DNA from: a virus
Lineage: Duplodnaviria > Caudoviricetes
Virus record (IMG/VR): IMGVR_UViG_3300017716_001697
Span: 224,001-288,000 of that record
Direction: 5' to 3' (one strand)
Length of the DNA stretch: 64,000 bases
Position numbers and translations under genes: made by a program. A model generated the notes under the pieces. That model was not told the origin of the DNA. It ran no database searches and saw nothing but the letters and a program-made list of their open reading frames with translations. How positions within the stretch are numbered: the stretch's first letter is position 1; the number at the start of each line of letters is the position of its first letter. Positions 6,785 to 64,000 of the stretch are shown in pieces.

Positions 6785-6835
6785 TTGACATATAGTGCAT
6801 CCTGCGTTATAATAAACACATGGCAACAAAGGATC
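6785..6835 (+). promoter_or_regulatory. early promoter-leader-RBS cassette
   Basis: TTGACA 6785, TATAAT 6808, AAACACATGGCAACAAAGGA leader. Confidence 0.85.
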
Positions 6836-6838
6836 ATC

Positions 6839-7147
6839 ATGAAGACATCAGAAATATTCCGTAAGGCAAAGAAACTTGTGACATATAAACCCGATAATGT
6901 CCATCGCAGATACATCTGCTTCGGCATTGAGGATTCGGATATTTCGTACAAAGATTCAGATAGGGCAAGGAAAATTATTAATCAGCGGCTTGGCCGTGGT
7001 TGCAACTCGCTGGAAGAGTGGCTGAATAAGAAAGGGTATGCACCCAGGCATTTTGGATTAACTAGGGCACATCGTATCAAAATGCAGAAGACACGGCATG
7101 CATGGTTGGATTCATTAATCAAAGAATTCGAAGCAAAAGGGGATTGA
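6839..7147 (+). CDS. hypothetical protein, family with 32517 and 32824
   Basis: YIC..I...ARKII..RL...LE.WL...WLDSLI.EF..KGD shared; true start 6839 after the RBS. Confidence 0.85.
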   Translation: MKTSEIFRKAKKLVTYKPDNVHRRYICFGIEDSDISYKDSDRARKIINQRLGRGCNSLEEWLNKKGYAPRHFGLTRAHRIKMQKTRHAWLDSLIKEFEAKGD

Positions 7148-24915: not shown

Positions 24916-25786
24916 CTATACTGGATGTCTTACGATACCCAGTCACGGATATCTATAACCTAGGAGAGATAGATGCGCTGCCTGCGAATCTGTTCATTGA
25001 TTGGGCAACAGAATGTTCCGGACAGCCACGAGAACGTATTGCAAAAGCAGAAGCATCGGCTGGCCTCACTCGCAAATCAATCACCCATGCAATGGTGTTA
25101 GCAAAAGTGCAGACTGAAACACGTAGACAGCACCGAAACTCTGGTTGGACAGATCTATACAAAGCACAGTTTCTGAAACGGTTAAAAGAAATGATAGCAG
25201 AGTATGAGCCTATTTGATGTACTTAGATACCAAATCAGCGTGCCACCTACTGAAGCAGAGTTAGAAGCACTTCCTAAGGGTATACTTAAAAAGTGGCTCG
25301 TAGAGATAGGAGCACTCGGCTGGCATTCTTACGACGACGCATCCCATTTGCCGGGGGTTATAGCCGAATACTATCAACGAAATAATCGAAGGGATGACCT
25401 TTTCGATATACCTACATTAAAAAGAATAATCAAGGAGCACGACAATGAGTCTCTTTGACTTAATCCGATATCCGATTACCGATATATACGATCAGAGACA
25501 ACTAGATCATGTTCCACAATTTATAATTGACACATGGGTAGAGTTGTGTGCTGTTGATGCACGACTCGACTTAAAGGAATTTTTATCATTTAATGCGATA
25601 ACATCGTTGACTGGGTTGAATACCACAGTAAACATTATCAAGGTGTGTGTGAAGCAAAAGATACTTGCCCACAATCTGCGATCAATGCAGACGTCTGATA
25701 TGCTAACCGGGTTTGAAATAAAAGCACAATATACAAGGATGCTTCGAGAGCTTGTATATGAGAATGAGTACTACGGTGAGGTATGA
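24912..25786 (+). CDS. three tandem paralogues with N-terminal (I/L)(L/F)D(V/L)(L/I)RY motif: 24912-25217, 25204-25458, 25445-25786
   Basis: MTILDVLRYPVTDIY / MSLFDVLRYQISVPP / MSLFDLIRYPITDIY. Confidence 0.8.
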
Positions 25787-27114
25787 GAGCTCGTGAATTT
25801 ATCGTAGAAATACAATGGTTCCATATCCTACGGGAAGCACATAAGAATATCACTATATTACCGTACACAAAAGATTTCTCCGGGGCAGTGTATATATCCA
25901 TACCAGACATAACAAACGAAGATCTATTATACATGAAGTTAATGCATCCTAATTTTAAATATAGAGAAGTATGACTGTAACATCGCATCAACCGAAATAT
26001 AAGTTCCAGTATGTAACAATCCTGTATAGCGATCTTCAAGAGCTACATAATTACATGAATGCATTGCCGAAGAGTTATGTTGTGTGCAGTCCAAAAGTGG
26101 TACCATCCGAGTTTACAACAGTCAAGACTCCGTGTAAACTACTGTTAGATATCACAGACGAAGAACTCTTATTCCTTAAACTAAAATTTAAAACATACGA
26201 TGTCGACGAACATAAAAGTAGCAAATGAACAGATACGATCATTGTTTGATACAGTGAAAATGTCTTGCGGCGAACCATTAGTGAAATACCTGCAATACAG
26301 AAATTCAAAGGATGGCGTATCCACATTTGCATTTACTAATGCAGCTGATAAGGAATCAGTAAACTTCATTACATTAAAATTCGATCAACCGGCAAACAAC
26401 CATGGCAATTCATAAGATATCAATCAGGGCAAGTGATTACACAAGGCTGGAAGATCTCATTCTAACCATGCCCGGGCGTGATGTAACGATAATGAGAGCC
26501 GACGAATACCCTGACGGCGATGCTCCATATACTGTAGTATATCTACGTCTAGAACAGACAGAAGATCTTTCATATATCTTGTTAATGGTGGGTGGTACAC
26601 AACTGCGACATCCATGACAAACATATATTCGGTACGTTTCGATCCCGAAACATCTGCCAACGAATATAGAGAAATAAGAATCTTCTTACGTCAAATCGAT
26701 GTTCCATTCAAACGGTATCTGCAACATGCACCGGATAATGCACAGATACGAATTACCTACGATCTGTATACAACTCCAGACAACATAAGTTTTCTATCAC
26801 TAAAATATAACAAATTTGAAGTGTTATCGACTATCAAAGGGTTCAATGGATAAATATCCTAAACGGGTATTATCATGGTCAATCATTACGAAGTTACAGT
26901 AAGCACAAAAGACAAAGATAAATTTCTGAATGACTTCTACGAAATAATTGATGCATATATCTTGTATCATACCATGGTTAGTATAGACACGGATAAGATT
27001 ACAATATCAATCAACGATGAGGATCTTGCATTCCTTGCGTTGCGTTATAAAATCGCCCCTTGTAGAATTAATAATGCTCTAACCTTGTTGACAGACTTCA
27101 ACATACTGCACTAA
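25783..27114 (+). CDS. array A, six small paralogues with C-terminal T(D/N)E(D/E)L..(L/M)KL motif: 25783-25974, 25971-26228, 26200-26415, 26402-26617, 26614-26853, 26875-27114
   Basis: ITNEDLLYMKL, ITDEELLFLKL, ADKESVNFITLKF, QTEDLSYILL, TPDNISFLSLKY, NDEDLAFLALRY; overlapping start/stop codons. Confidence 0.75.
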
Positions 27115-27152
27115 CCAATTTACACGGCCAGACCCGCATGTTATAATGTAAC

Positions 27153-27718
27153 ATGACTGAAGACGACACATTCAACAAGCTACGCAAACCCACATTCGAC
27201 GCAATGTATAACAATTATATCGGGTGGTTGAATAATGAATTTTCATTCAATGGGCTAACATTAACCCTCTGGCTCGATAAAAACAATTGGGACTATGTTG
27301 AATTTGCCAATGCATGCATAAAACAAGCAGAAGATCATTAAAATGACTGAAGATGATACATTCGGTGCCTTGCAGAGGGAAGACTTCCATAGTGTATATT
27401 CTCGATATCTACGAGCTAGTGATTACACACCCATATCGGACGAAGATCTAAAAGGCACGGGCTGGACATTGGTAGAATTTCAGATTGCATTTAATAAATG
27501 GTTGATATCAAATGCCAGCCAAGATGAATAAACAATACACAGAAGAAGATACATTCAATGCTCTTAGGCAAACAAAACTCGAACGAGTGCAAATAGCTGT
27601 CGCTGAAGCACAAGGTAGTAATTACCGATTAGAACATGCTGATCTGATTAAGGTATTAAAGGAACATAATTGGAAAGTATCCGAATACTGGAAACAAGTC
27701 AAGGCAGCATCAAAGTGA
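27153..27718 (+). CDS. three TEDDTFNxLR-family paralogues: 27153-27341, 27343-27531, 27524-27718
   Basis: MTEDDTFNKLRK, MTEDDTFGALQR, YTEEDTFNALRQ; C-terminal L...(N/G)W...E(F/Y). Confidence 0.85.
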
Positions 27719-28175
27719 GAACATATCTCCTTCGTGTGAGTGACATAGATAAGAGTAAGTTAAATACCATTCTTTCTCTAGATCAGCGTATGAACATAAA
27801 CTCGGATTTGGACGAGTATGGATTTCAATTTAAACAATTTAATTTAACAGACGAAGAGCTTCTTGTGATTAAACTTATATTTCCATGGTGCATCCCGATG
27901 CTGCTAAAATGAAAACATTTCTACTCGAATTCAATGTTCACGCACCATTCTACAGTTACAGTCAAGATATTAAACGTATCGAGAAAGTAATAGGGACTAA
28001 GCTAATTCAGGTCGGTACATCCTATTCGCGGTTGCGCAGATTCGAATTGGACGACACCAGTGCCATTATTATACTCAAATTTGCATGCGATGATATTATC
28101 TTAAGCCTCAAACAAGTTGAAAAAATGGATAGTATGTTCGTCGATGATTACCGTGTGGTAGCAAATATATGTTAA
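27715..28175 (+). CDS. two array-A paralogues: 27715-27912 (GTG start), 27909-28175
   Basis: LTDEELLVIKLIF; LDDTSAIIILKF. Confidence 0.7.
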
Positions 28176-28762
28176 CAGAAGAAGATACATTCAATGCACT
28201 TCGCAGAATACCGCTGCGGAAGATGCATATACTATTGAAACCGCTTTTGATGCATGACGCACCAGGCGAAGTAATAGATAACCTATTGCACGCCAATGGA
28301 TGGACACTCGACGAGTATTACACAGAAAGGGATGCCACAGCAATGGCACGTATCAATGCATACTGCTGAAGATACGTTCAACACGTTAAGACGCATACCA
28401 TTTGACATGGTAAGACAGACACTTATTACTATCGCTATCGGAACCAATGTAAAGACCTTCCTGGAAAGTAATGGCTGGACAGAAAAAGAATACAGTGATA
28501 TGTGGCATCACAAATACAATAATGGCGTGCTCTTGGTTGGGCGCACCAGATAACAATAATGACTGAAGACGACACATTTAACACCCTACGGAGGCCATCT
28601 GTTACGGAGATGTATGCTATTCTGCATAATCATTCATATAGCATAACCTTAAATAATCCTGTACTAGAACAGCACGGCTGGACACGAGAAGAATATGATA
28701 AAGCAAAGTCCGGGATAGATATGGGTATATTCAAAGAGATACGACGTAGGTTGAACAAATGA
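28169..28762 (+). CDS. three TEDDTFNxLR-family paralogues: 28169-28369, 28356-28553, 28559-28762
   Basis: LTEEDTFNALRR, HTAEDTFNTLRR, MTEDDTFNTLRR; L..(N/H)GWT..EY. Confidence 0.85.
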
Positions 28763-30721
28763 AAAGCTATAAGATAGCAGTGCATGAGGATGAAGTAGTC
28801 GCGTTTATCAAAGAAACTGGTGCAACCTGCGACACAGCATGGGATGAACAAACCAGAACAACGAAACGATTCTTCGTGTTTGGTACTAATGGCATCCCAT
28901 ACTTCCTACACCACTTGACAACAGAAGAAGAACATGTAACAATGATACTAATGAAATACAAATCCATCCGTTATAGCAGACCTATGCACGGGATGCTGTA
29001 TTGGTGTAACGCGGGTGAGGAAATATGAAAGATCACTACCGTGTCTGGATTAATTTACACGATAAAAAGAAGTTTGAAGCACTGCTGCGTATCAACGGTA
29101 TCTACATTACATGCAGCCCTGATGCATACTTTAGATCTGAGTACGTACCAGTTTGTTATGATACACTAATGAGTGGAGAAGATGAACTAATGCTCCAACT
29201 CTCAATCGATTGTGTAATACTAAACAGGAAAGACGATGCTACAGATCTTCGAACTAAGGCATTAGAAAAAGTAAGAGCAATGGTATGAAAACTTATATCA
29301 TAGACTTTGGCGACCACACACTAGATCAATTCAATAGTATTGTGGAGCCATCACGCAGACTTAAGGATGAGAATACAGGCTGGGTAAGACGCTGGCGTGC
29401 AGTAAAGCTAACAGACGAAGAAGCCACAGTAGTGTGTCTCATCTTCAAACATATCAGAGTAAATGAAGGAGAAGGCGTCCAACTTCTCACCAAGCACTTT
29501 AGCGATCCAAAATGAACAATACACGCGAAATAGAAATAACAGTACAAACCGAAAGGTGTAACGAGCTTGCCGATGTATTGTCAACCCTGAGGCTGACATA
29601 CTATGCCTCAGATCAAGCAACCGGTACAATCACATCCACATTCAGTATCAGAGCAACCCCAGAAGACCTAGTATTGCTGAAACTTAGTATTAGCGATATA
29701 GTATTAACTGATGTATCACTTAGTATTAATGATGCAGGATATAAGGCAAGGATGACAGGCGAAGTGATAGCTCTCCGCCACAAGTATGTAGGTAAATGGC
29801 TGGGATTGAAACTGTGATAGATTGTCTTATATACTTAGATGAAACAACTGTGTCTCGCTTTAATGAACTTGTCGCACCATGTCACAGACATAAAACTTCG
29901 ATAAGCGATGTTCCACAATGGTATAGAGTTGTGCTGTATGACGAAGAAGCTACCGCAGTGTTTCTAGTATTCAAACACTTAGCAGCACAAAGAATGCCTC
30001 CATATTTCCGGGAAATGTTAGGGGATATCCATGAGTATTAAAATGCATAAGATATTTCTTGACCATAATTCCGCACAAGGATTCAATAATGTAGTGTGCG
30101 AAGAGCATCAAGTACACCACAACTTAATAGATTACTTCCCACACGGTGCCTGGTTTAATGTACTACTATCAGACGAGGAATTGACCATAATTACGCTAAA
30201 ATTCGAACCTAATCTCATTAATACATATAGACCCACCCAATAGCTCATCAATCATATTTGTGCTATAGTATTGTTATGAGTAAACTCCACTATTTGGCAT
30301 TCCTTAGTAATGATGAAATCCCCGAGTTCAACAAGATAGTATCCAACGAATCACAACTCACAATGTGCAGCCACGGCCTATCAGCTCAGTGGTTTTATAT
30401 CACACTATCACCCGAAGAATCGACCATAATTAAGCTAAAATTCAGATATGTAGAGCGAGACACACATCAACGCAATGTCACCGCTTATTCTGAATAAAGA
30501 GAACGAAAATGAATGATATTACAAAGAACTATAGTGTATTCATACATAGGAAAGATGTAGATAGATTCTATACTATAGTGAGTAACTTCGATCACAACAG
30601 CGGCCTAATGGAAACACTCTTCAATAAGCTACATGCAGGCTATCGCTTAAAAATGCATGATCATGAAACAATTATACTAAGACTTAGTATAGAAGACATA
30701 TCGATCACAGAATCCCACTAA
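28759..30721 (+). CDS. array A, eight small paralogues: 28759-29028, 29025-29288, 29285-29515, 29512-29817, 29814-30041, 30031-30243, 30276-30497, 30509-30721
   Basis: C-terminal motifs TTEEEHVTMILMKY, SGEDELMLQL, LTDEEATVVCLIF, TPEDLVLLKL, YDEEATAVFLVF, LSDEELTIITLKF, LSPEESTIIKLKF, HDHETIILRL. Confidence 0.8.
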
Positions 30722-56302: not shown

Positions 56303-56581
56303 ATGCTGTATAATGTAAATACCATTATGCCAACTTCAAGCTTATTCCCTGATTACTGTTATTGCACTATAGTGAAATGCTGGGCGCATGAAGATATAGA
56401 CCATCATTCAAAACGGTTCTACGCCGCAACAGAATGGTTACTTAAATATAATGCAGTATTAATGGAAGACTGCGAAGATGCACACGGACATTATTACACT
56501 TCAAGATACATTGTGAAGTTTGTTAGTAAAGATGATATGCTAGCGTTTATGCTTCAATTCGGTGATTTGCTAGAACGCTAA
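56303..56581 (+). CDS. array-B-type small protein
   Basis: C-terminal VKFVSKDDMLAFMLQF. Confidence 0.7.
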   Translation: MLYNVNTIMPTSSLFPDYCYCTIVKCWAHEDIDHHSKRFYAATEWLLKYNAVLMEDCEDAHGHYYTSRYIVKFVSKDDMLAFMLQFGDLLER

Positions 56582-56633: not shown

Positions 56634-58046
56634 TTAGTAGTTTCTATTGTGATCACCAGTTTGATAGTTAGTGCCGTTGACTTGATTGGAGTGTGCTATA
56701 TATTCCTGTACATTAGGGGTCGGGCTTCTTATATACCCGTATGCTGAAGGATTCAACTTTACAGCCATCATCTGTAATGCTGAGTCTGGTAGAGCCATAT
56801 ACTCTATGGATGTTGGATCCATTTTTAGTGCTGCTTCAAGAGTCTTTCTATTTACTTTGAAGTCACCACGACGGAAGAACTTCAATGCAGCTTTACCATG
56901 TTTTTCTAATACACGTAATTGTAAGTCGACTGGTATTTCTATATCTTGCTCTACTAAGGAACCTGCTATTGTGGGATCATTCAATACAGCAGCATCTATA
57001 ACTGCACTAGTTGGTTCGATATCGTATTTTAATAAATTGTTTATTTCTCCACCGTCGGCTGATACTACTGCTAGTTGGACTGCTTCTGATGGATTATAAC
57101 CATTGTGTAACATGTCGGAAAGTTCGTCAGGTGCAACCCTTAATGTAACCATGCGAACCTTTTCGTTGTCGTCGGCTAGCATTGTCCATACACCTCTGGT
57201 ATCATTATCTGTTGCAGCTATTAACGCTACCTTTTCTGGATAGTTAGTTAGCTTCTTATTATCGTTAGTTTTTAATAATGCGTATATGTATCTCTTGCAT
57301 AGTTGACCATCTTCTGAATCTACAAGTTTCTTTTCTAGTTCTGGATCGCGTTGATAACCATCGAAATTTTTCATTAACTCGTATACTTGGTTTGTTAATT
57401 CTTTGCGATCTTTGCGAGTGGAATCTATTTGTCCGCTGGTCGCAGGAACATCGCCGTTTACTAACTTGCACAGTTCGTAAAGATCTAAGCCGGTTTGTTT
57501 TCTGAATTCGGTGGGTGTAATACTGTTATCGCGCTGGTCGAATATCTCTGAGTTTTCTGGTAAGTCTTTATGTGTAGCCAATGCCCACATACCACCGGTT
57601 TGTTTTTGCAAACAGTATATAAGTGTTATATTCTTATTGTGGAAGTAATCGTTAAAGTAATTTTGATCGGATTTAGTTGTGCACCAGTTACTATCCTTAC
57701 CGTGGAAACAACTAGCGTTCTTGTCTAGTGGAACTACTATAAGCCAATTGTCGTCTTCTTTTACTGTTACGGACTTGCCGGGTACTTTCTTTCTTTTAAT
57801 TTGTGTAGCGGTGTTTGTTTCGGATTTGCCGTTTACAAATTTTAAAAAGTTATCCCACCCTTGCTTACGCCAGTGATCTATGTTACGCTCGTTGCCTGCC
57901 ACTTGATTCTTTGTTACTAATGTCTTATACTTGTTAATAGCGTCGGCAGCGGTGGCTGGATCTGAAGCAGCAGAAAATTCCTGCGTTGCTTCTTTGTAGC
58001 CTTCTGTTATTGATAATGATGATGAAAATAATTCTATTAACCGCAT
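56634..58046 (-). CDS. 470-aa putative late/virion-packaged protein with C-terminal helical repeats (DUF4116-like)
   Basis: Upstream minus-strand GATAAATA; N-terminal MRLIELF..ITE; I.VP....ASC..G..S.WCTT...YF..Y; repeats such as ALQMMAVKLNPSAYGYI. Confidence 0.8.
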   Translation of the reverse strand: MRLIELFSSSLSITEGYKEATQEFSAASDPATAADAINKYKTLVTKNQVAGNERNIDHWRKQGWDNFLKFVNGKSETNTATQIKRKKVPGKSVTVKEDDNWLIVVPLDKNASCFHGKDSNWCTTKSDQNYFNDYFHNKNITLIYCLQKQTGGMWALATHKDLPENSEIFDQRDNSITPTEFRKQTGLDLYELCKLVNGDVPATSGQIDSTRKDRKELTNQVYELMKNFDGYQRDPELEKKLVDSEDGQLCKRYIYALLKTNDNKKLTNYPEKVALIAATDNDTRGVWTMLADDNEKVRMVTLRVAPDELSDMLHNGYNPSEAVQLAVVSADGGEINNLLKYDIEPTSAVIDAAVLNDPTIAGSLVEQDIEIPVDLQLRVLEKHGKAALKFFRRGDFKVNRKTLEAALKMDPTSIEYMALPDSALQMMAVKLNPSAYGYIRSPTPNVQEYIAHSNQVNGTNYQTGDHNRNY

Positions 58047-58079: not shown

Positions 58080-60853
58080 ATGTATAGACTGCACATCCGC
58101 GATTATAAAAACAATATGCTTGATGCATGCCATTGGTGGAAGAACTTTACTGTTGTGTACAGGAAGGTCGTGCAATCTACTTATATTGAATTAGAAGATT
58201 ATATACTGGAACACCACGGTGGGGTCTATAATGGTGGAGCGTCGTGGCATATTGACTTCGATGAAAAAGAAGACGCTGCTGCATTCGTATTGAGGTATAG
58301 CTGATATGTATAAACTAGAAGTAATTAAGAACTACGAAAATAGGCCCGATGGCGAAGATTACGACGATACTTTGTGGATGAAGTTTCTTACTAATGCAGC
58401 ACATCTGGATGTAGATAATAATATATTTAAAGCAACCGATAAGGTATTAGAAGAGTACGGCGGTACTAATCCGCGGCGTACTGGGCATCTATTATTCGAA
58501 ACAGAAGAAGCCGCCCTTGCATTTAAATTGGTATGGTTGACATAATGTACTTGGTAAATTTATCGGATACACCATACAAGAACGCTTGGAAAAACTATGC
58601 ATCTGTGAAACGGTTGGCCGGGACATGGGACTTAACTAGTGGACTAGAACAAATTAATGCAGTTGATGCTCCAGAGAGTTCCAATGAAATTTATTTTCTT
58701 ACAGAAGAAGATGCCACTGCATTTGTATTAAGGTATTCGTAATATGTACCAATTAGAAGTAATTAGATCTTATATACACGACGAAGTGGAGTATCGTGAT
58801 GATACCCTGTGGCTAAATTTTATTACTAGGGTTGGCGATGAGTGCAACACTGGTCGGACCAGTAACACTGATGATATATTTGATGCGATGGATGTGATAC
58901 TTAAAGAGTATAATGGCATTAATCCGCGAAACACTAGTTACCTGATCTTTGCGACACCAGAAGATGCATTAGCATTTAAGATAGTGTGGTTGACATAATG
59001 TACACAGTAAATTTATACACTGAGAAATACAGTAATGCGTGGGATAACTATACGCTCGATTATCGAATTACCGAAGAATGGGATTTAGACGAAATGCTGA
59101 GAAACATTAATGCAGTTGATAATCCTCTTAGCCGTGAAGAGATTTATTTTAAGGCTGAAGAAGATGCACTTGCATTTCTTTTAAAGTATTCCTAATATGT
59201 ACGCATTAACTCTTACAGATCTGAAAACATGGCAGGGACATAAATGGTGGGACAATTTCTGCAGAGAAAATAAGATACTGACTATCGTGGAACCAGTAAC
59301 TAAGAAAAGCAGAGTAAACGTCTTGTTGCGTAAACACAACGGTGTGTTTACTACGGGCCCACTTTGGTCTGTTGTGTTTGACACAGAGGAAGACGCTACA
59401 GCATTTATATTGAGGTTTTCCTAATGTACACGTTAAAAATCGACTCTAAAACTACACCATGGTGGAACTTCTTAGGGAGCATTAAGGACGAAGATATTAT
59501 AGGTAAGACTGCTAATGAGCAATTAGATTTTATAAATCTATCGTTGTATGAGTATAAGGGAGAATGTTTCCTTACCACTAGATTGGATAGAATTAGTATA
59601 GTACACTTCGAAACAGAAGAAGATTATGTTGTGTTTAAGTTAAGGTTTTCCTAATATGTACAAATTAAGAATTAATGTTAGTAAGAAGTCGGACTACGAA
59701 GCGACATATTACGATTCTGCAACCTGGTGGAAGAACTTTAACGACTGGTATCATAACACATGTACAGTGGGTATGAATAAGGATGACTATATGCTACAGG
59801 TATGTGGATGTAGTTATGAAATGTCGCCTGAGTGGATACTTAAATTTAATACAGAAGAAGATGCAACTGTTTTTAAGTTAAGGTTTAGTTAATTATGGCA
59901 TACAGATACCGTATTGTAAACGCTCCGAATATCTGGGCTAACTTCTTAGTCGACTCTAGGTATAGTGACGAGATAGAACTACAGTCGTGGTGGGAATATA
60001 CCGTTTGGTGTTCTGAAAAGTTAAAACCATGGAATGCTACCTTAGTGGGATCTATTGATGGCATAGTTTTTGAAAATGACGATGATGCAGTGGCCTTTAA
60101 ACTAAAGTATTCCTGATGTACGAATTTTATATCTTTACACATAATCTCCATGTATGGGAAAACTTTGTGGCTAGCACAGCAGCAGGTGGGCAAGATGGAG
60201 ATACATATATTAGTACACTTAATGATGCATTAGAAAGATATAAAGGTGTTATTAAGCCGCATTATGTAGAATTTGCCACCGAGGAAGATTTTATAGTTTT
60301 TAGATTGAGCTTTGCGTAAATATGACACCAGTATATGCACCGATAAAGAATGATCGCGAACATGAGATCGCAGTAATGAAATGGTTAAACGAGTTACCGT
60401 CCCAGAGTTACCATTGGGACGAAGAGTATCAGGAATTGCAGTTTAGACATGAAACAGATGCAGTAGCATTTATATTAAAGTTCGGAATATGATAACAATT
60501 GCCACAGACAGTGTACCTATGGAAGTATATTATGCTATAATGAATTGGTTAGAGACTGACGATATAGAACATGAAGCACTACTGGAAGACTCGCTTGGCT
60601 ATGTTGCGGCAATACGCATGTCCGAAGAAGATGCGTTAATAATGAGATTGAAACTAGGCATATGAATAATAAACGTAAACTATGTACACAGGTATTTATT
60701 GTGCCCGATAAGCCAGTATACAGACAATGGCTTGCAGCCTTACCAAAGAAACGGTGGTTCCACCGTAGAACATCGAATTGGTGGGATGATTATATCGAAC
60801 TACACCTACAGCCAGAAGATGCCCTAGCATTTAAACTAAGATTTGAATTATGA
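58080..60853 (+). CDS. array B part 1, 13 paralogues: 58080-58304, 58306-58545, 58545-58742, 58744-58998, 58998-59195, 59197-59424, 59424-59654, 59656-59892, 59895-60116, 60116-60319, 60322-60492, 60489-60665, 60662-60853
   Basis: All end F(D/E/L/A/N)x(E/K/P)EDAxxF(K/V/I/L)L(R/K)(Y/F/W)(S) or a close variant; TAATG/ATGA junctions. Confidence 0.88.
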
Positions 60854-61185
60854 ATACAAACACTATATTAAACGAAGATTACACAGCTGGTGTATTGGCA
60901 GGTATACCATTTTTCTGTATTAACAGATTATACAGATGTAATGAAGGAAGCATGGCACTTAAGGTGCAATATGAATTTACTTTTGATAACGGGTACGGAG
61001 CCAGCATTGTCGAATTCCATGATAAGATGTATTCTGGTGGTGCGCAGTACGAATTAGCAGTACTCCGTGATGATCGGTTGGTATACGATACCTATATAAC
61101 ATCTGATGTGGAGCGTGGCAATGAAAAGTATATGCACGAATTACTAAATAAAATTGAACAGTTAAACCAACTGCCTAGTAGTTAG
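60850..61185 (+). CDS. hypothetical phage protein (not array family)
   Basis: F.F.NGYGASIV....Y.G...YELAVL. Confidence 0.85.
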   Translation: MNTNTILNEDYTAGVLAGIPFFCINRLYRCNEGSMALKVQYEFTFDNGYGASIVEFHDKMYSGGAQYELAVLRDDRLVYDTYITSDVERGNEKYMHELLNKIEQLNQLPSS

Positions 61186-61187
61186 CT

Positions 61188-63777
61188 ATGATAAGATACG
61201 ATGATACATTGGTACGTGCCCACATTGTGCGAGCATGGATTGCAGCGGAATACGACGCTTTAGATAAATGGGTGATGCAGTGCGATAATGCGGTATGGGA
61301 TTACAATGGACCACGTAGCCATTACAAAGGTAGGCTATTCTATTCTTATGTGATATTTGACTCTACTGAAGATTTACTAGCATGCAAATTAGTCTTTCCA
61401 GAAATTGATTTAGTAAGATATGCCGATTAACACTGTATATTATACATTTGATTTTTGCGTTTCGGCGCGTCCTGCAGGACACCAATACAACCCGCCTGAA
61501 CCAAATTTTGACAAATATTGACATGGCATACCTGTTTAATGTACACTATGAAGTCGAGCCTAATCTGTGGATTAACTTTCAGACTGCAGAAGGTGGGCCA
61601 GAATTTAATGCAGACGACTGCACTTTTCAAGAGAGATACACTACCTGGATAGATGCTGCACTTAAGAAATATAATGCATATAATGTAGAGGGTGGCACAT
61701 ATATCTATTTCGAAACAGAGGAAGATGCTACTGCTTTTAAACTGAGGTTTAGCTAATGATATCAATACATTTTTCTGAAGCTATAGATATACACAATACC
61801 AGGAATTATTTCGAAAATTTCTACTCAATGGTGTGGAAGGCAAATTTCGGACAGACCGTCGATGATTGGCCATTAGATAGGGCGTTAGACACAGCAATTA
61901 AAGAGTATGGCGGTATCAGCGTAGTTAGACGATATCATAATGCATACCAAGCATATAGATATGTTGCTAAATTCGAGTCCGAGGAAGACCTTGTTGTTTT
62001 TAAATTAAAGTTCAGCTAATGATATTAGTTCCACTACCACTCAACAAATTAGAAAGAATGACTCGTGAACACTGGTGTATAGAACATATAGGTGACCCGA
62101 GTCCGTCGACATGGTTCATACTAAATTCAATATACCAATTGTCAAATAAGAGTGTAAACATGGTGGAATATAACAGATATAACAATGCAGGGTTAACAAG
62201 ATGTCTAGCAATATGCAATCACGAAACTGCTAGTGCATATAAATTAAGGTTTGGTATATCATGAGTTATTCTGTACAATGTAAATATACAACTGACATTG
62301 AATATTATAAAACAATGAAGCAATGGTTGCTGGATACAGGCATGACGGCATGGCGTTGGGATGATGGGCGATATCGTATGATATTTGAAGATGAAATGGA
62401 TGCACTTACCTTCAAACTAAGATATCAGAATGATGTTGATGAGCAGAATATATGATACTCGTAGATGTTAATTCACCTAAATTTAACTATCCTGCACCGT
62501 GGGATAAATTTGTTAAGGTTGCTGATGCTCTGTGGTCGGAAAGGTTTAGACACGCAGAGTGGCGTGATTTTTTAGATGCGCAGTTACTTGATATGGGTGC
62601 AGTAAATATAATGAATACCTATTACATTGAGTTCAAAGATAGGAGTGATGCCCTTGCGTTCATACTCAAATTTGGTGGCATCTATGAAGATCGTGAATTG
62701 ACACCGGACGACGATGGCAGCGTATAAGCACAGCGAGCAATTCACAGTCGTACGCATCCCCGACGATTATGATTTCTACGAAGATGATTCAATGTACGAG
62801 TGGTGCGAAGAGCATGCCGGTGATAGAAGCTATAGTTGGGGATACGATGACAAGCAGGGGATTATCTGGTTTGCCGAATCTATTGTCGCCAACCTGTTTA
62901 AATTAACATTCGGAATATGATTTATATTAAATTTCCCAACTACGAAATTATACCAATGGTGACAGCATCTGATTTACTACGAAGCTATATGGTATGGTTA
63001 AATGAACATGCTGGTAATGGACCTACAATAAACGACGAACAGTTACTTAAAGAGTGGGACTGGGTGCGCGGTGATAGATATGCACGAGGTGTTTATATAC
63101 GCGACCCAGAGGTAGCCACTATGTTTAAATTAAAATTCACATTATGACTAATATAGTAGATACAGCAGTTAGAGATAACGAATATCTTGGTATGGTAAAG
63201 GTTGACTTAAAGTTACTCTGGGACGGACCAGCTGCTGTTAGTCCTAAAACATATAATATCTATAAGAATATGTGTCAATGGCTTAGTGAGTCTAAAATAA
63301 CACACAGATTCTTTTGGGACAATACTGGCCAGTATCTACCTAATGCAATCTATCTGGATGCGAAGAGTGACACTGCGACATATTTTATGTTAAAGTACGG
63401 TATATGCAGGTAGATTTAAGACACATATCAAACGACCTTTACAGAAGTGTGTGGTCGTATCTGTTAAGACCTGATAATAAACCCATGTGGGAATATTCAG
63501 TGGCAAGTGTTAATTTAGATGATATTATATATTTTCATAATAAAGAAGATGCCACATTTTTTAAATTAAAGTTTGGATTGTAATGTACCGTATCGTGCGT
63601 AATAGTCTAGTCGATGATGCTGAATGGGTTACGCTCGAATGTACTACACAAATCGGTTCGTGGATTAATACCCAATCATCTGACTTGTGGTACTGCCACA
63701 CAGGTATGCCACACGGGCACCTGTACTACGATATTCACGAAGAACTATTGTTGTTGATTAAGTTGAAATACGGTTAG
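61188..63777 (+). CDS. array B part 2, 11 paralogues: 61188-61430, 61481-61756, 61756-62019, 62019-62264, 62261-62455, 62452-62727, 62714-62920, 62917-63147, 63144-63413, 63404-63583, 63583-63777
   Basis: FDSTEDLLACKL, FETEEDATAFKLRFS, FESEEDLVVFKLKFS, NHETASAYKLRFG, FEDEMDALTFKLRY, FKDRSDALAFILKFG, FAESIVANLFKLTFG, RDPEVATMFKLKF, SDTATYFMLKYG, FHNKEDATFFKLKFG, HEELLLLIKLKYG. Confidence 0.85.
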
Positions 63778-63814: not shown

Positions 63815-64000
63815 ATGCAGTTTTTATTCAATACACGTGAGTTAATAGGTAACATAGATTGCGCTGAGGCACTGTTTTCGTATCACCACTATGTTAACTG
63901 GTGTATAAATAATATAGACCAAGATCAATGGGAATTGGACAACACAGACATTATTTGCGTTGGCGGCAAATCTGTGGCTGGTGCCATTCGCATTAAGAAT
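63815..64000 (+). CDS. hypothetical protein, 3' truncated (possibly array family)
   Basis: AAGGAGG RBS; VNWCINNI...QWE. Confidence 0.65.
   Translation, partial: MQFLFNTRELIGNIDCAEALFSYHHYVNWCINNIDQDQWELDNTDIICVGGKSVAGAIRIKN

Follow-up and report, generated by a model that had tools for sequence, protein, structure and literature searches.

The 64,000-nucleotide (nt) stretch of viral DNA analysed here, hereafter the window, spans bases 224,001–288,000 of G000, a viral genome of 364,576 bp that is complete and bears direct terminal repeats (IMG/VR record IMGVR_UViG_3300017716_001697) whose DNA came from a freshwater metagenome. Window positions 58080–63777 hold a tightly packed array of small paralogous genes. 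The reading put forward here, with a little better than an even chance of being correct, is that the array belongs to a lineage-specific expansion of an undescribed small scaffold domain, which evolves by birth and death and whose proteins would bind host targets as accessory factors. The expansion comprises 47–50 copies in ten clusters, the largest of 25, and is lineage-restricted and variable between relatives. The major capsid protein (MCP) of G000, encoded at genome positions 341,179–342,351 (locus L014), is 95% identical to that of G001, a second complete viral genome of 362,810 bp, 74% identical to that of Sinorhizobium phage Phosso and 64% identical to that of Agrobacterium phage Atu_ph07. 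Because of the latter two values, G000, an uncultured jumbo phage from fresh water, is assigned by its capsid sequence to the Atu_ph07/Phosso lineage, and its host is probably an alphaproteobacterium. Two further sequences were compared throughout, namely G001, whose core open reading frames (ORFs) match those of G000 at a median identity of 60%, and L009, a 135-kb metagenomic contig syntenic with the window.

The array is an unbroken plus-strand chain of 25 ORFs of 56–111 residues, 24 of which form one family; the 111-residue ORF at 60850–61185 is unrelated. A first-pass annotation made from the sequence had described about 24 head-to-tail ORFs of 55–90 residues, and its count of family members stands, whereas the chain itself is 25 ORFs long, has a wider size range and includes one unrelated gene. 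The ATGA, TAATG and TAATATG-type junctions reported there were recovered, with intergenic gaps of −14 to +2 nt and a 92-nt gap at 61431–61522 as the sole exception. Its picture of AT-rich DNA with few Shine–Dalgarno (SD) sequences and sigma70 promoters also agrees with the measurements: the G+C content is 0.37–0.38 in the array versus 0.42–0.50 across most of the window (0.382 for family genes versus 0.416 genome-wide), an SD core of at least 4 nt lies ahead of 8 of 26 starts, and 34 sigma70-like sites were counted against a shuffle expectation of 32.9 ± 5.6. A terminator scan of the array gave results at chance level only, and by-eye inspection found no common promoter motif upstream of the ten clusters. 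Given the overlapping stop/start packing, translational coupling along long transcripts is the most likely mode of expression for the family genes. At the junctions between 58290 and 63580, the SD-like GAGGT or AAGG, where present, is encoded by the Leu-Arg codons of the K-L-R-F tail of the preceding gene; the protein motif therefore overlaps the ribosome-binding site of the next gene. The conserved tail and the start region together form a DNA junction repeat of 54–70 nt, which recurs at 200–240-nt intervals.

A hidden Markov model (HMM) of the family, seeded with the 24 array proteins and iterated over all 2,249 ORFs of G000, converged on 47 ORFs (E ≤ 1e-3), with no match among residue-shuffled ORFs and none on the minus strand, a result beyond chance that bears out the earlier observation. 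At E ≤ 0.1 the model recovered 49 ORFs, an independent six-frame profile search at E ≤ 0.01 recovered 50, and the true copy number in G000 is probably above 50. Family genes account for 41 of the 639 crude gene calls of the genome (~6%, or one in about sixteen); their products have a median length of 76 residues, and the genes lie in ten clusters, all on one strand. The array is not the whole family. It is the bulk of the largest cluster, which reaches 25 members with an additional gene upstream (56303–56581), while a probable member starts at 63815 and about 22 further members are spread across nine other clusters. In the second-largest cluster, L006 (genome 190,000–198,500), members are interleaved with unrelated genes, and several ORFs with degenerate tails fall below the HMM threshold there (e.g., L006:3469–3873 and 6822–7043).

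The family tail, [IVL]-x-F-x-x-[TSD]-E-E-D-A-x-x-F-K-L-[RK]-[FWY], was found in 24 of the 25 array ORFs, and its two Phe residues and Leu are each present in 38–43 of the 47 members. An N-terminal strand, Y-x-[VL]-x-[IV], occurs in nearly all array members, as does a helix bearing a Trp, often as W-x-N-F, that is invariant in the 40 aligned rows (40/40). Conservation within the family is highest at this Trp and at the hydrophobic residues of the last helix. The Trp helix and the tail are 29–102 residues apart, and several members carry 5–25 residues beyond the motif. The proteins are mildly acidic (median isoelectric point 5.2; below 6 in 34 of 47) and rich in Trp (3.8% versus a background of 1.4%), and no transmembrane segments, Cys motifs or metal motifs were found in them. 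With a net charge of only about −3, DNA mimicry is disfavoured. Old paralogues share 20–40% identity.

In the AlphaFold2 model of member 8 (78 residues, 45-sequence alignment), the predicted local distance difference test (pLDDT) value was 79.4 and the predicted template modelling (pTM) score 0.64. The model consists of a strand (residues 2–6), helices (23–35 and 42–49), two strands (52–56 and 60–64) and a helix (67–77), and its last 20 residues, the conserved tail, reach pLDDT 91–93, the highest of the domain. A natural tandem protein was modelled as two strand-helix-strand-strand-helix units (pLDDT 72, pTM 0.52). Each member is predicted to form one compact β1-α1-(optional α)-β2-β3-α2 unit with a three-stranded sheet under the helices, and the modelled unit is best described as a ferredoxin-like arrangement minus its last strand. 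The motif is predicted to comprise β3, an acidic helix N-cap (T/S-E-E-D) and an amphipathic last helix (A-x-x-F-K-L-R-F). The models therefore match the first-pass proposals that one scaffold combines a conserved core with a variable region and that the motif consists of a strand and then a helix, located at the β3-α2 position of a ferredoxin-like arrangement. They do not match its notion of a half-RRM, since five of the fold's six elements are present in the unit.

Database searches support the earlier statement that the proteins fit no characterised family. Nothing in Pfam, PHROGs or NCBIfam matches the members recurrently (for Pfam, 45 members at E ≤ 1, the scope of all Pfam results below), and Foldseek found nothing in the PDB. 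With an exhaustive structural aligner, on whose own scale a Z score under 8 may reflect just a common arrangement, the single-unit model gave Z 2.6–3.7, and unit 1 of the tandem model gave Z 6–7 to ACT, RRM, PII-like and DCoH domains (root-mean-square deviation 2.1–2.9 Å over ~60 residues), the best of 192 chains at Z ≥ 5 being 5uyy (Z 7.0, 2.1 Å over 59 residues). Good fold matches, with template modelling scores of 0.6–0.75, were to uncharacterised viral proteins only. The ferredoxin-like ACT, RRM, PII-like and DCoH domains share the β1-α1-β2-β3-α2 order and packing, with the family motif falling at their β3-α2 junction; unlike them, the family models have no fourth strand, and sequence similarity, ribonucleoprotein (RNP) motifs and the ACT ligand loop are all absent. 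Membership of RRM (PF00076) was rejected, as the models have three strands, the chain ends at α2 and no RRM match was obtained, and SPOR (PF05036) gave no match either. The type I KH topology is β-α-α-β-β-α. The order of elements in the 78-residue model is the same as in type I KH (PF00013), and PNPase KH regions recur among the weak top matches, but the second helix is missing from short members and from the tandem model, and the family is acidic. KH membership was rejected: a GXXG loop between the two helices is the defining mark of KH, GXXG occurs anywhere in only 7 of the 47 members, and no Pfam KH match was obtained. A further likeness was seen to NDUFS4, the 18-kDa subunit of electron transport chain complex I (PF04800), in which a similar W...W...hydrophobic strand precedes T-x-E-D-A-x-x-F, and which ranked first among the PDB sequences matched by the family profile (E 0.28 over 42 profile positions). 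Homology was rejected on account of this E value, the absence of a Pfam match and its absence from the fold matches, and the likeness is most likely a convergent strand plus helix-cap motif. The family is no member of the RRM, KH or NDUFS4 families; its models have no fourth strand, and it has no RNP motifs, few GXXG sequences and no recurring database match.

Selection was assessed against L009, where the same minus-strand gene of ~470 residues is followed by an array. Fourteen orthologue pairs, 44–80% identical, gave a pooled ratio of nonsynonymous to synonymous substitution rates (dN/dS) of 0.20 overall, 0.13 for the last 20 codons and 0.23 for all other codons, with dS ~1.4, near saturation. 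A dN/dS of ~0.2 between orthologues indicates, at the codon level, that the family ORFs are real genes under purifying selection. It also follows that the bodies of the proteins are conserved within each orthologue line and that the large differences are those between old paralogues. The first-pass annotation had let the middle of the proteins vary freely and had seen in the array a diversifying library with hypervariable N-termini. Neither view is supported: the middle differs between old paralogues yet is conserved between orthologues, and the comparison of N- and C-terminal parts that it had suggested yields ~0.2 in both. The youngest duplication, in which the two-gene unit 58306+58533 gave rise to 58744+58986, is already down to 53% (58306/58744) and 57% (58533/58986) identity, with dN/dS of 0.15–0.46. 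Paralogues differ by indels throughout. Diversification by a diversity-generating retroelement is excluded because G000 has no reverse transcriptase (PF00078 was absent from the genome, whereas control genomes gave matches).

Family genes duplicate in tandem, neighbours are deleted or recombine with one another, and the repertoire is further reshaped by changes of order and by divergence. A comparison of the window with L009 shows gene gains, losses and rearranged order. Among the L009 genes is a chimeric one of 56 residues without a Trp helix (L009:10240–10410), in which the first 11 codons of the 62261 orthologue are joined to the last ~45 of the 62452 orthologue; it looks like a deletion through recombination between neighbouring paralogues. 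The 54–70-nt junction repeat would offer the homology for unequal crossing-over. G001 carries 36–41 family genes, all on one strand, and none of the 41 G000 family genes has a match of at least 50% identity there, versus 22 of 209 other small ORFs. The 11 family matches that do exist in G001 are paralogues at ~37% identity. No 1:1 family orthologue is shared by G000 and G001; as a consequence of this turnover, two phages with 95% identical capsid proteins hold wholly separate sets.

Beyond these genomes, the family profile matched 895 representatives of 50%-identity clusters (E ≤ 1e-3) among 1.84 billion proteins, nearly all of them 55–100 residues long. Two-unit tandem fusions made up 8 of the best 150 relatives (e.g., P0005, P0011 and P0018). 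One match of 5,271 residues, P0021, is a repetitive eukaryotic RanBP2-like protein and was rejected as a chance match to the strand-helix motif. On a 4-kb contig, 17 of the 18 called genes are members. Of the isolates, the cultured Sinorhizobium phage Phosso, with a genome of 469 kb, contains 37 matches, every one of them annotated as hypothetical, and Atu_ph07 has three weak ones, whereas T4 and Salicola phage SCTP-2 have none. The related phage AP-J-162 probably carries the family as well; the family is unmentioned in the genome papers of Atu_ph07 and AP-J-162. Single-protein tblastn against 50,697 phage records returned nothing for two member queries, and one weak match led to Phosso; megablast of the array region against phages returned no match. 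A related-locus search with a six-row alignment matched only G001, and a profile search for homologous proteins found 11, all unnamed and without Pfam domains.

As to function, the analogy is with the small, rapidly evolving accessory genes of large virulent phages, whose general behaviour is established for T4-type early genes and for anti-defence genes. By this analogy the members would most likely, at roughly even odds, bind macromolecules of the host or the phage stoichiometrically, in takeover of the cell or in countering its defences. Within such a scheme, the last helix and the invariant α1 Trp may form a hydrophobic core, while the variable region of the N-terminal strand and the insert between α1 and β2 could present a specific surface. 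The members would be non-enzymatic accessory factors made before or alongside replication, each with a separate macromolecular target in the host (or phage) that it binds to aid takeover or resist defence, and an arms race with the host would account for both the high copy number and the fast turnover. Several points weigh against this account. Its functional part is drawn from the general behaviour of small accessory genes and not from homology, and the structural matches stay at the level of a common arrangement, with a best Z of 3.7 for the single unit. With dS near saturation, site-specific positive selection can be neither excluded nor demonstrated. Rapid turnover between G000 and G001 is also seen in small ORFs outside the family (23% retained), and the turnover of the family is therefore not unique in kind.

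Among the other explanations, the one that survives best, although it is improbable, is that the units are obligate homo- or heterodimers, “RRM-like minus β4”, in which a second unit completes the open sheet edge left by the missing fourth strand and different members form combinatorial pairs; the first-pass annotation had put forward such pairing, with half-RRM units. The models are three-stranded with β1 as a free edge, tandem two-unit fusions recur (the 8 among the best 150 relatives), and co-transcribed, translationally coupled genes favour co-assembly. Most relatives are nevertheless single units, tandem fusions would arise equally from loss of the stop codon between adjacent paralogues, and the tandem model, with its pTM of only 0.52, is uninformative on packing between units. 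Co-folding of member 8 as a homodimer, run with controls, scored 0.37 against a mark of 0.42 and was counted neither for nor against binding.

Only marginally less probable is that the members are small KH- or RRM-like binders of phage or host RNAs, in a lineage that encodes many tRNAs. The single-unit topology equals that of type I KH, the weak top matches are repeatedly the PNPase KH region and RRMs, and aromatic residues are conserved on β1 (Y) and β3 (F). The acidity of the family speaks against nucleic-acid binding, as do the scarcity of GXXG, the absence of RNP1 and RNP2 and of any Pfam KH or RRM match, and single-unit fold scores that lie at noise level.

One subgroup led to a further idea, that of a modular decoy or adaptor system. 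P0001, a member of 120 residues outside the window (L006:3866–4228, genome 193,865–194,227), begins with ~45 residues that copy the conserved N-terminal segment of the T4-type MCP: they match Pfam Gp23 positions 3–44 (E 2e-9) and are 45% identical to residues 59–98 of the G000 capsid protein and 46% identical to residues 95–131 of T4 gp23. The Gol region we take to be gp23 residues 93–122; in T4 its binding of EF-Tu sets off abortive infection. Conservation along gp23 is highest in the Gol region, which binds EF-Tu and switches on the Lit protease (PMC3014915). A viral cluster of 113 members in the ESM Atlas shares the architecture of P0001, and in Phosso a copy of the capsid segment also stands alone, at 182,277–182,402. 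P0001 suggests, at the sequence level, that the scaffold can carry functional peptides. In a decoy or adaptor system, an invariant mini-scaffold would offer a different bait with each copy, each bait neutralising a different host immune sensor or hijacking a different host factor; the P0001 subgroup would be a decoy for capsid-sensing defences or an EF-Tu modulator, and tandem or neighbouring units might pair through the open edge, with combinatorial specificities as the outcome. About this scheme we are doubtful, and rate it a little below RNA binding.

The conservation of the tail, by far the strongest in the family, could also mean that it is a portable tag read by one partner (a chaperone, protease, packaging or secretion factor) with the bodies as cargo, and the first-pass annotation had likewise proposed a constant C-terminus for docking or targeting. 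This is quite unlikely. The motif is internal in tandem fusions, members extend past it, and it is predicted as an integral strand, cap and helix with the top confidence of the domain, so that it is not a terminal tag. The Trp helix and N-terminal strand are conserved too, so the whole domain, bodies included, is homologous, and the only constant neighbour, the 470-residue gene described below, is missing from G001 and present in SCTP-2, which has no family member.

Slimmer still is the chance that the members belong to the virion or are injected as internal proteins, having been packaged along with the DNA into a very large capsid. P0001 with its MCP segment, the 113-member cluster of the same architecture and the stand-alone segment of Phosso point that way. 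On the other side, the segment is confined to the P0001 subgroup, the arrays are surrounded by small non-structural genes and are distant from the capsid module (341 kb), and no proteomic link could be drawn, the three weak Atu_ph07 members being untraceable by accession in the virion proteome supplement. Finally, the idea that the array consists of DNA repeats or non-coding RNAs and that its ORFs are no genes, as the regular junction repeat and few SD sequences might hint, is effectively refuted by codon-level conservation (dN/dS ~0.2 at saturated dS, reading frames kept in distant genomes), the strand- and frame-specific matches with none in shuffles, and the lack of an Rfam match.

The closest parallel to the preferred reading, a lineage-specific scaffold expansion, is Bacillus phage G, whose zinc-ribbon expansion of ~35 copies was described as unprecedented by a survey that covered 224 jumbo phages (Iyer et al. 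2021, PMC7824862). In both cases one small domain, with a function unknown or guessed, occurs in dozens of copies in a jumbo phage genome. Unlike the zinc ribbon, the present family has an unrelated fold without Cys motifs and more copies (47–50), and its expansion is found in several phages of the lineage (G000, G001, L009 and Phosso) and is fully re-diversified between close relatives. The genes also resemble T4-type early or accessory blocks, which serve host takeover and anti-defence, in being small, tightly packed on one strand, AT-rich, poorly conserved among related phages and without enzymatic signatures. The genes of T4-type blocks are mostly unrelated to one another, whereas here one fold accounts for ~6% of genes, and T4 has no member. 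The family is undescribed and belongs with the lineage-specific expansions of small accessory proteins in jumbo phages; its fold class is ordinary, and the observation itself is solid. Such expansions usually mark the front line of phage–host conflict, and the family represents a large unexplored pool of candidate host-binding proteins. Since Phosso carries 37 copies and AP-J-162 probably some, it is open to study in a culturable, genetically tractable system. A new domain model would annotate ~900 orphan metagenomic protein clusters, and if the members were merely dispensable accessory genes, annotation would be the main value.

The individual members all lie on the plus strand and are numbered here along the array, with E values against the family HMM and orthologues from L009. 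Upstream of the array stands the member of 92 residues at 56303–56581 (E 1.5e-12), whose L009 orthologue is 61% identical and which is set apart by the minus-strand 470-residue gene. Member 1 (58080–58304, 74 residues, E 2.1e-15; orthologue l6747, 60% identical) is followed by the old two-gene tandem duplication, whose units A and B are members 2 (58306–58545, 79 residues, E 6.4e-14) and 3 (58533–58742, 69 residues, E 1.1e-13) and whose units A′ and B′ are members 4 (58744–58998, 84 residues, E 1.2e-16) and 5 (58986–59195, 69 residues, GTG start, E 6e-15; l7673, 59%). Next come members 6 (59197–59424, 75 residues, E 4.3e-14), 7 (59424–59654, 76 residues, E 1.9e-12; l7214, 44%), the modelled member 8 (59656–59892, 78 residues, E 2.7e-18; l6973, 60%), 9 (59895–60116, 73 residues, E 5.5e-12) and 10 (60116–60319, 67 residues, E 2.4e-11; l8142, 49%). 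Member 11 (60322–60492, 56 residues, E 3.8e-12; l8350, 58%) is a short form without the second helix, member 12 (60489–60665, 58 residues, E 1.2e-6; l8520, 74%) has a divergent tail, and member 13 (60662–60853, 63 residues, E 3.2e-10) has no L009 orthologue. The non-member at 60850–61185 lacks the motif and matches phrog_4074 (function unknown) at 3.9e-9; its orthologue l8908, 68% identical, occupies the same relative position in L009.

Beyond the non-member, member 14 (61188–61430, 80 residues, E 2.2e-12; l9231, 61%) extends past the motif. Member 15 (61523–61756, E 6e-19; l9768, 78%, same Met start) has 77 residues from its ATG; the mechanical ORF from the TTG at 61448 would give 102, and a 77-residue representative, P0003, is on record. 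Member 16 (61756–62019, 87 residues, E 1.7e-12) has its orthologue, l7876 (48%), elsewhere in L009, and the acidic cap is degenerate in member 17 (62019–62264, 81 residues, E 1.6e-12; l10001, 80%). Member 18 (62261–62455, 64 residues, E 2.8e-13) again extends past the motif, and member 19 (62452–62727, 91 residues, E 9.9e-15) has an acidic C-terminal extension. The chain closes with members 20 (62714–62920, 68 residues, E 3.8e-13), 21 (62917–63147, 76 residues, E 2.5e-15; l10407, 63%), 22 (63144–63413, 89 residues, E 1.8e-10; l10634, 66%), 23 (63404–63583, 59 residues, E 1.4e-12; orthologue at L009 10897–11076) and 24 (63583–63777, 64 residues, E 7.8e-9), the last with a degenerate cap. The ORF at 63815–64000, which leaves the window (genome 287815–288033, plus strand, 72 residues), is a probable divergent member with the W-helix signature and an I-S-D-A-L-N-F tail, and it falls below the HMM threshold. 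Elsewhere in the window, at 25783–30243, four small plus-strand ORFs have a similar but distinct tail of the D-E-E-L-L-x-x-K-L-K-F type; they were left out of the family, as the HMM does not recover them at E ≤ 0.1, and they may not be genes.

Dividing the cluster, the unrelated gene of 470 residues at 56634–58046 is the sole minus-strand gene of the region, and its start lies 33 nt from the first array gene. It matches phrog_17056 (2e-47) and also phrog_28193, of unknown function, and it is 78% identical in L009. A 26% identical homologue occurs in Salicola phage SCTP-2 (at six places in the record), and none was found in G001. A role as obligatory partner of the family was rejected, given its absence from G001 and the homologue in the family-less SCTP-2.

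The array's only gap contains, at 61454–61496 on the plus strand, a GC-rich non-coding block of 43 nt with a perfect 12-bp palindrome, GTCCTGCAGGAC. The block is 100% identical between the window and L009 despite the saturated dS of the flanking genes; it is single-copy in G000 and was not found in G001. It gave no Rfam match and a fold z-score of −1.27, and a role as operator, promoter or small RNA is possible.

A NUMOD3 homing-endonuclease gene is missing from G000 and present in L009. A few kilobases downstream of the array, an RNase T/Rv2179c-like exonuclease gene is followed by a minus-strand block, in a gene order common to three related contigs (L008:2021–2542, L009:13272–13808 and L018:4344–4859). 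That block includes UDP-glucose dehydrogenase and methyltransferase genes in L008 and L018 and radical-SAM genes in L009 and L018.

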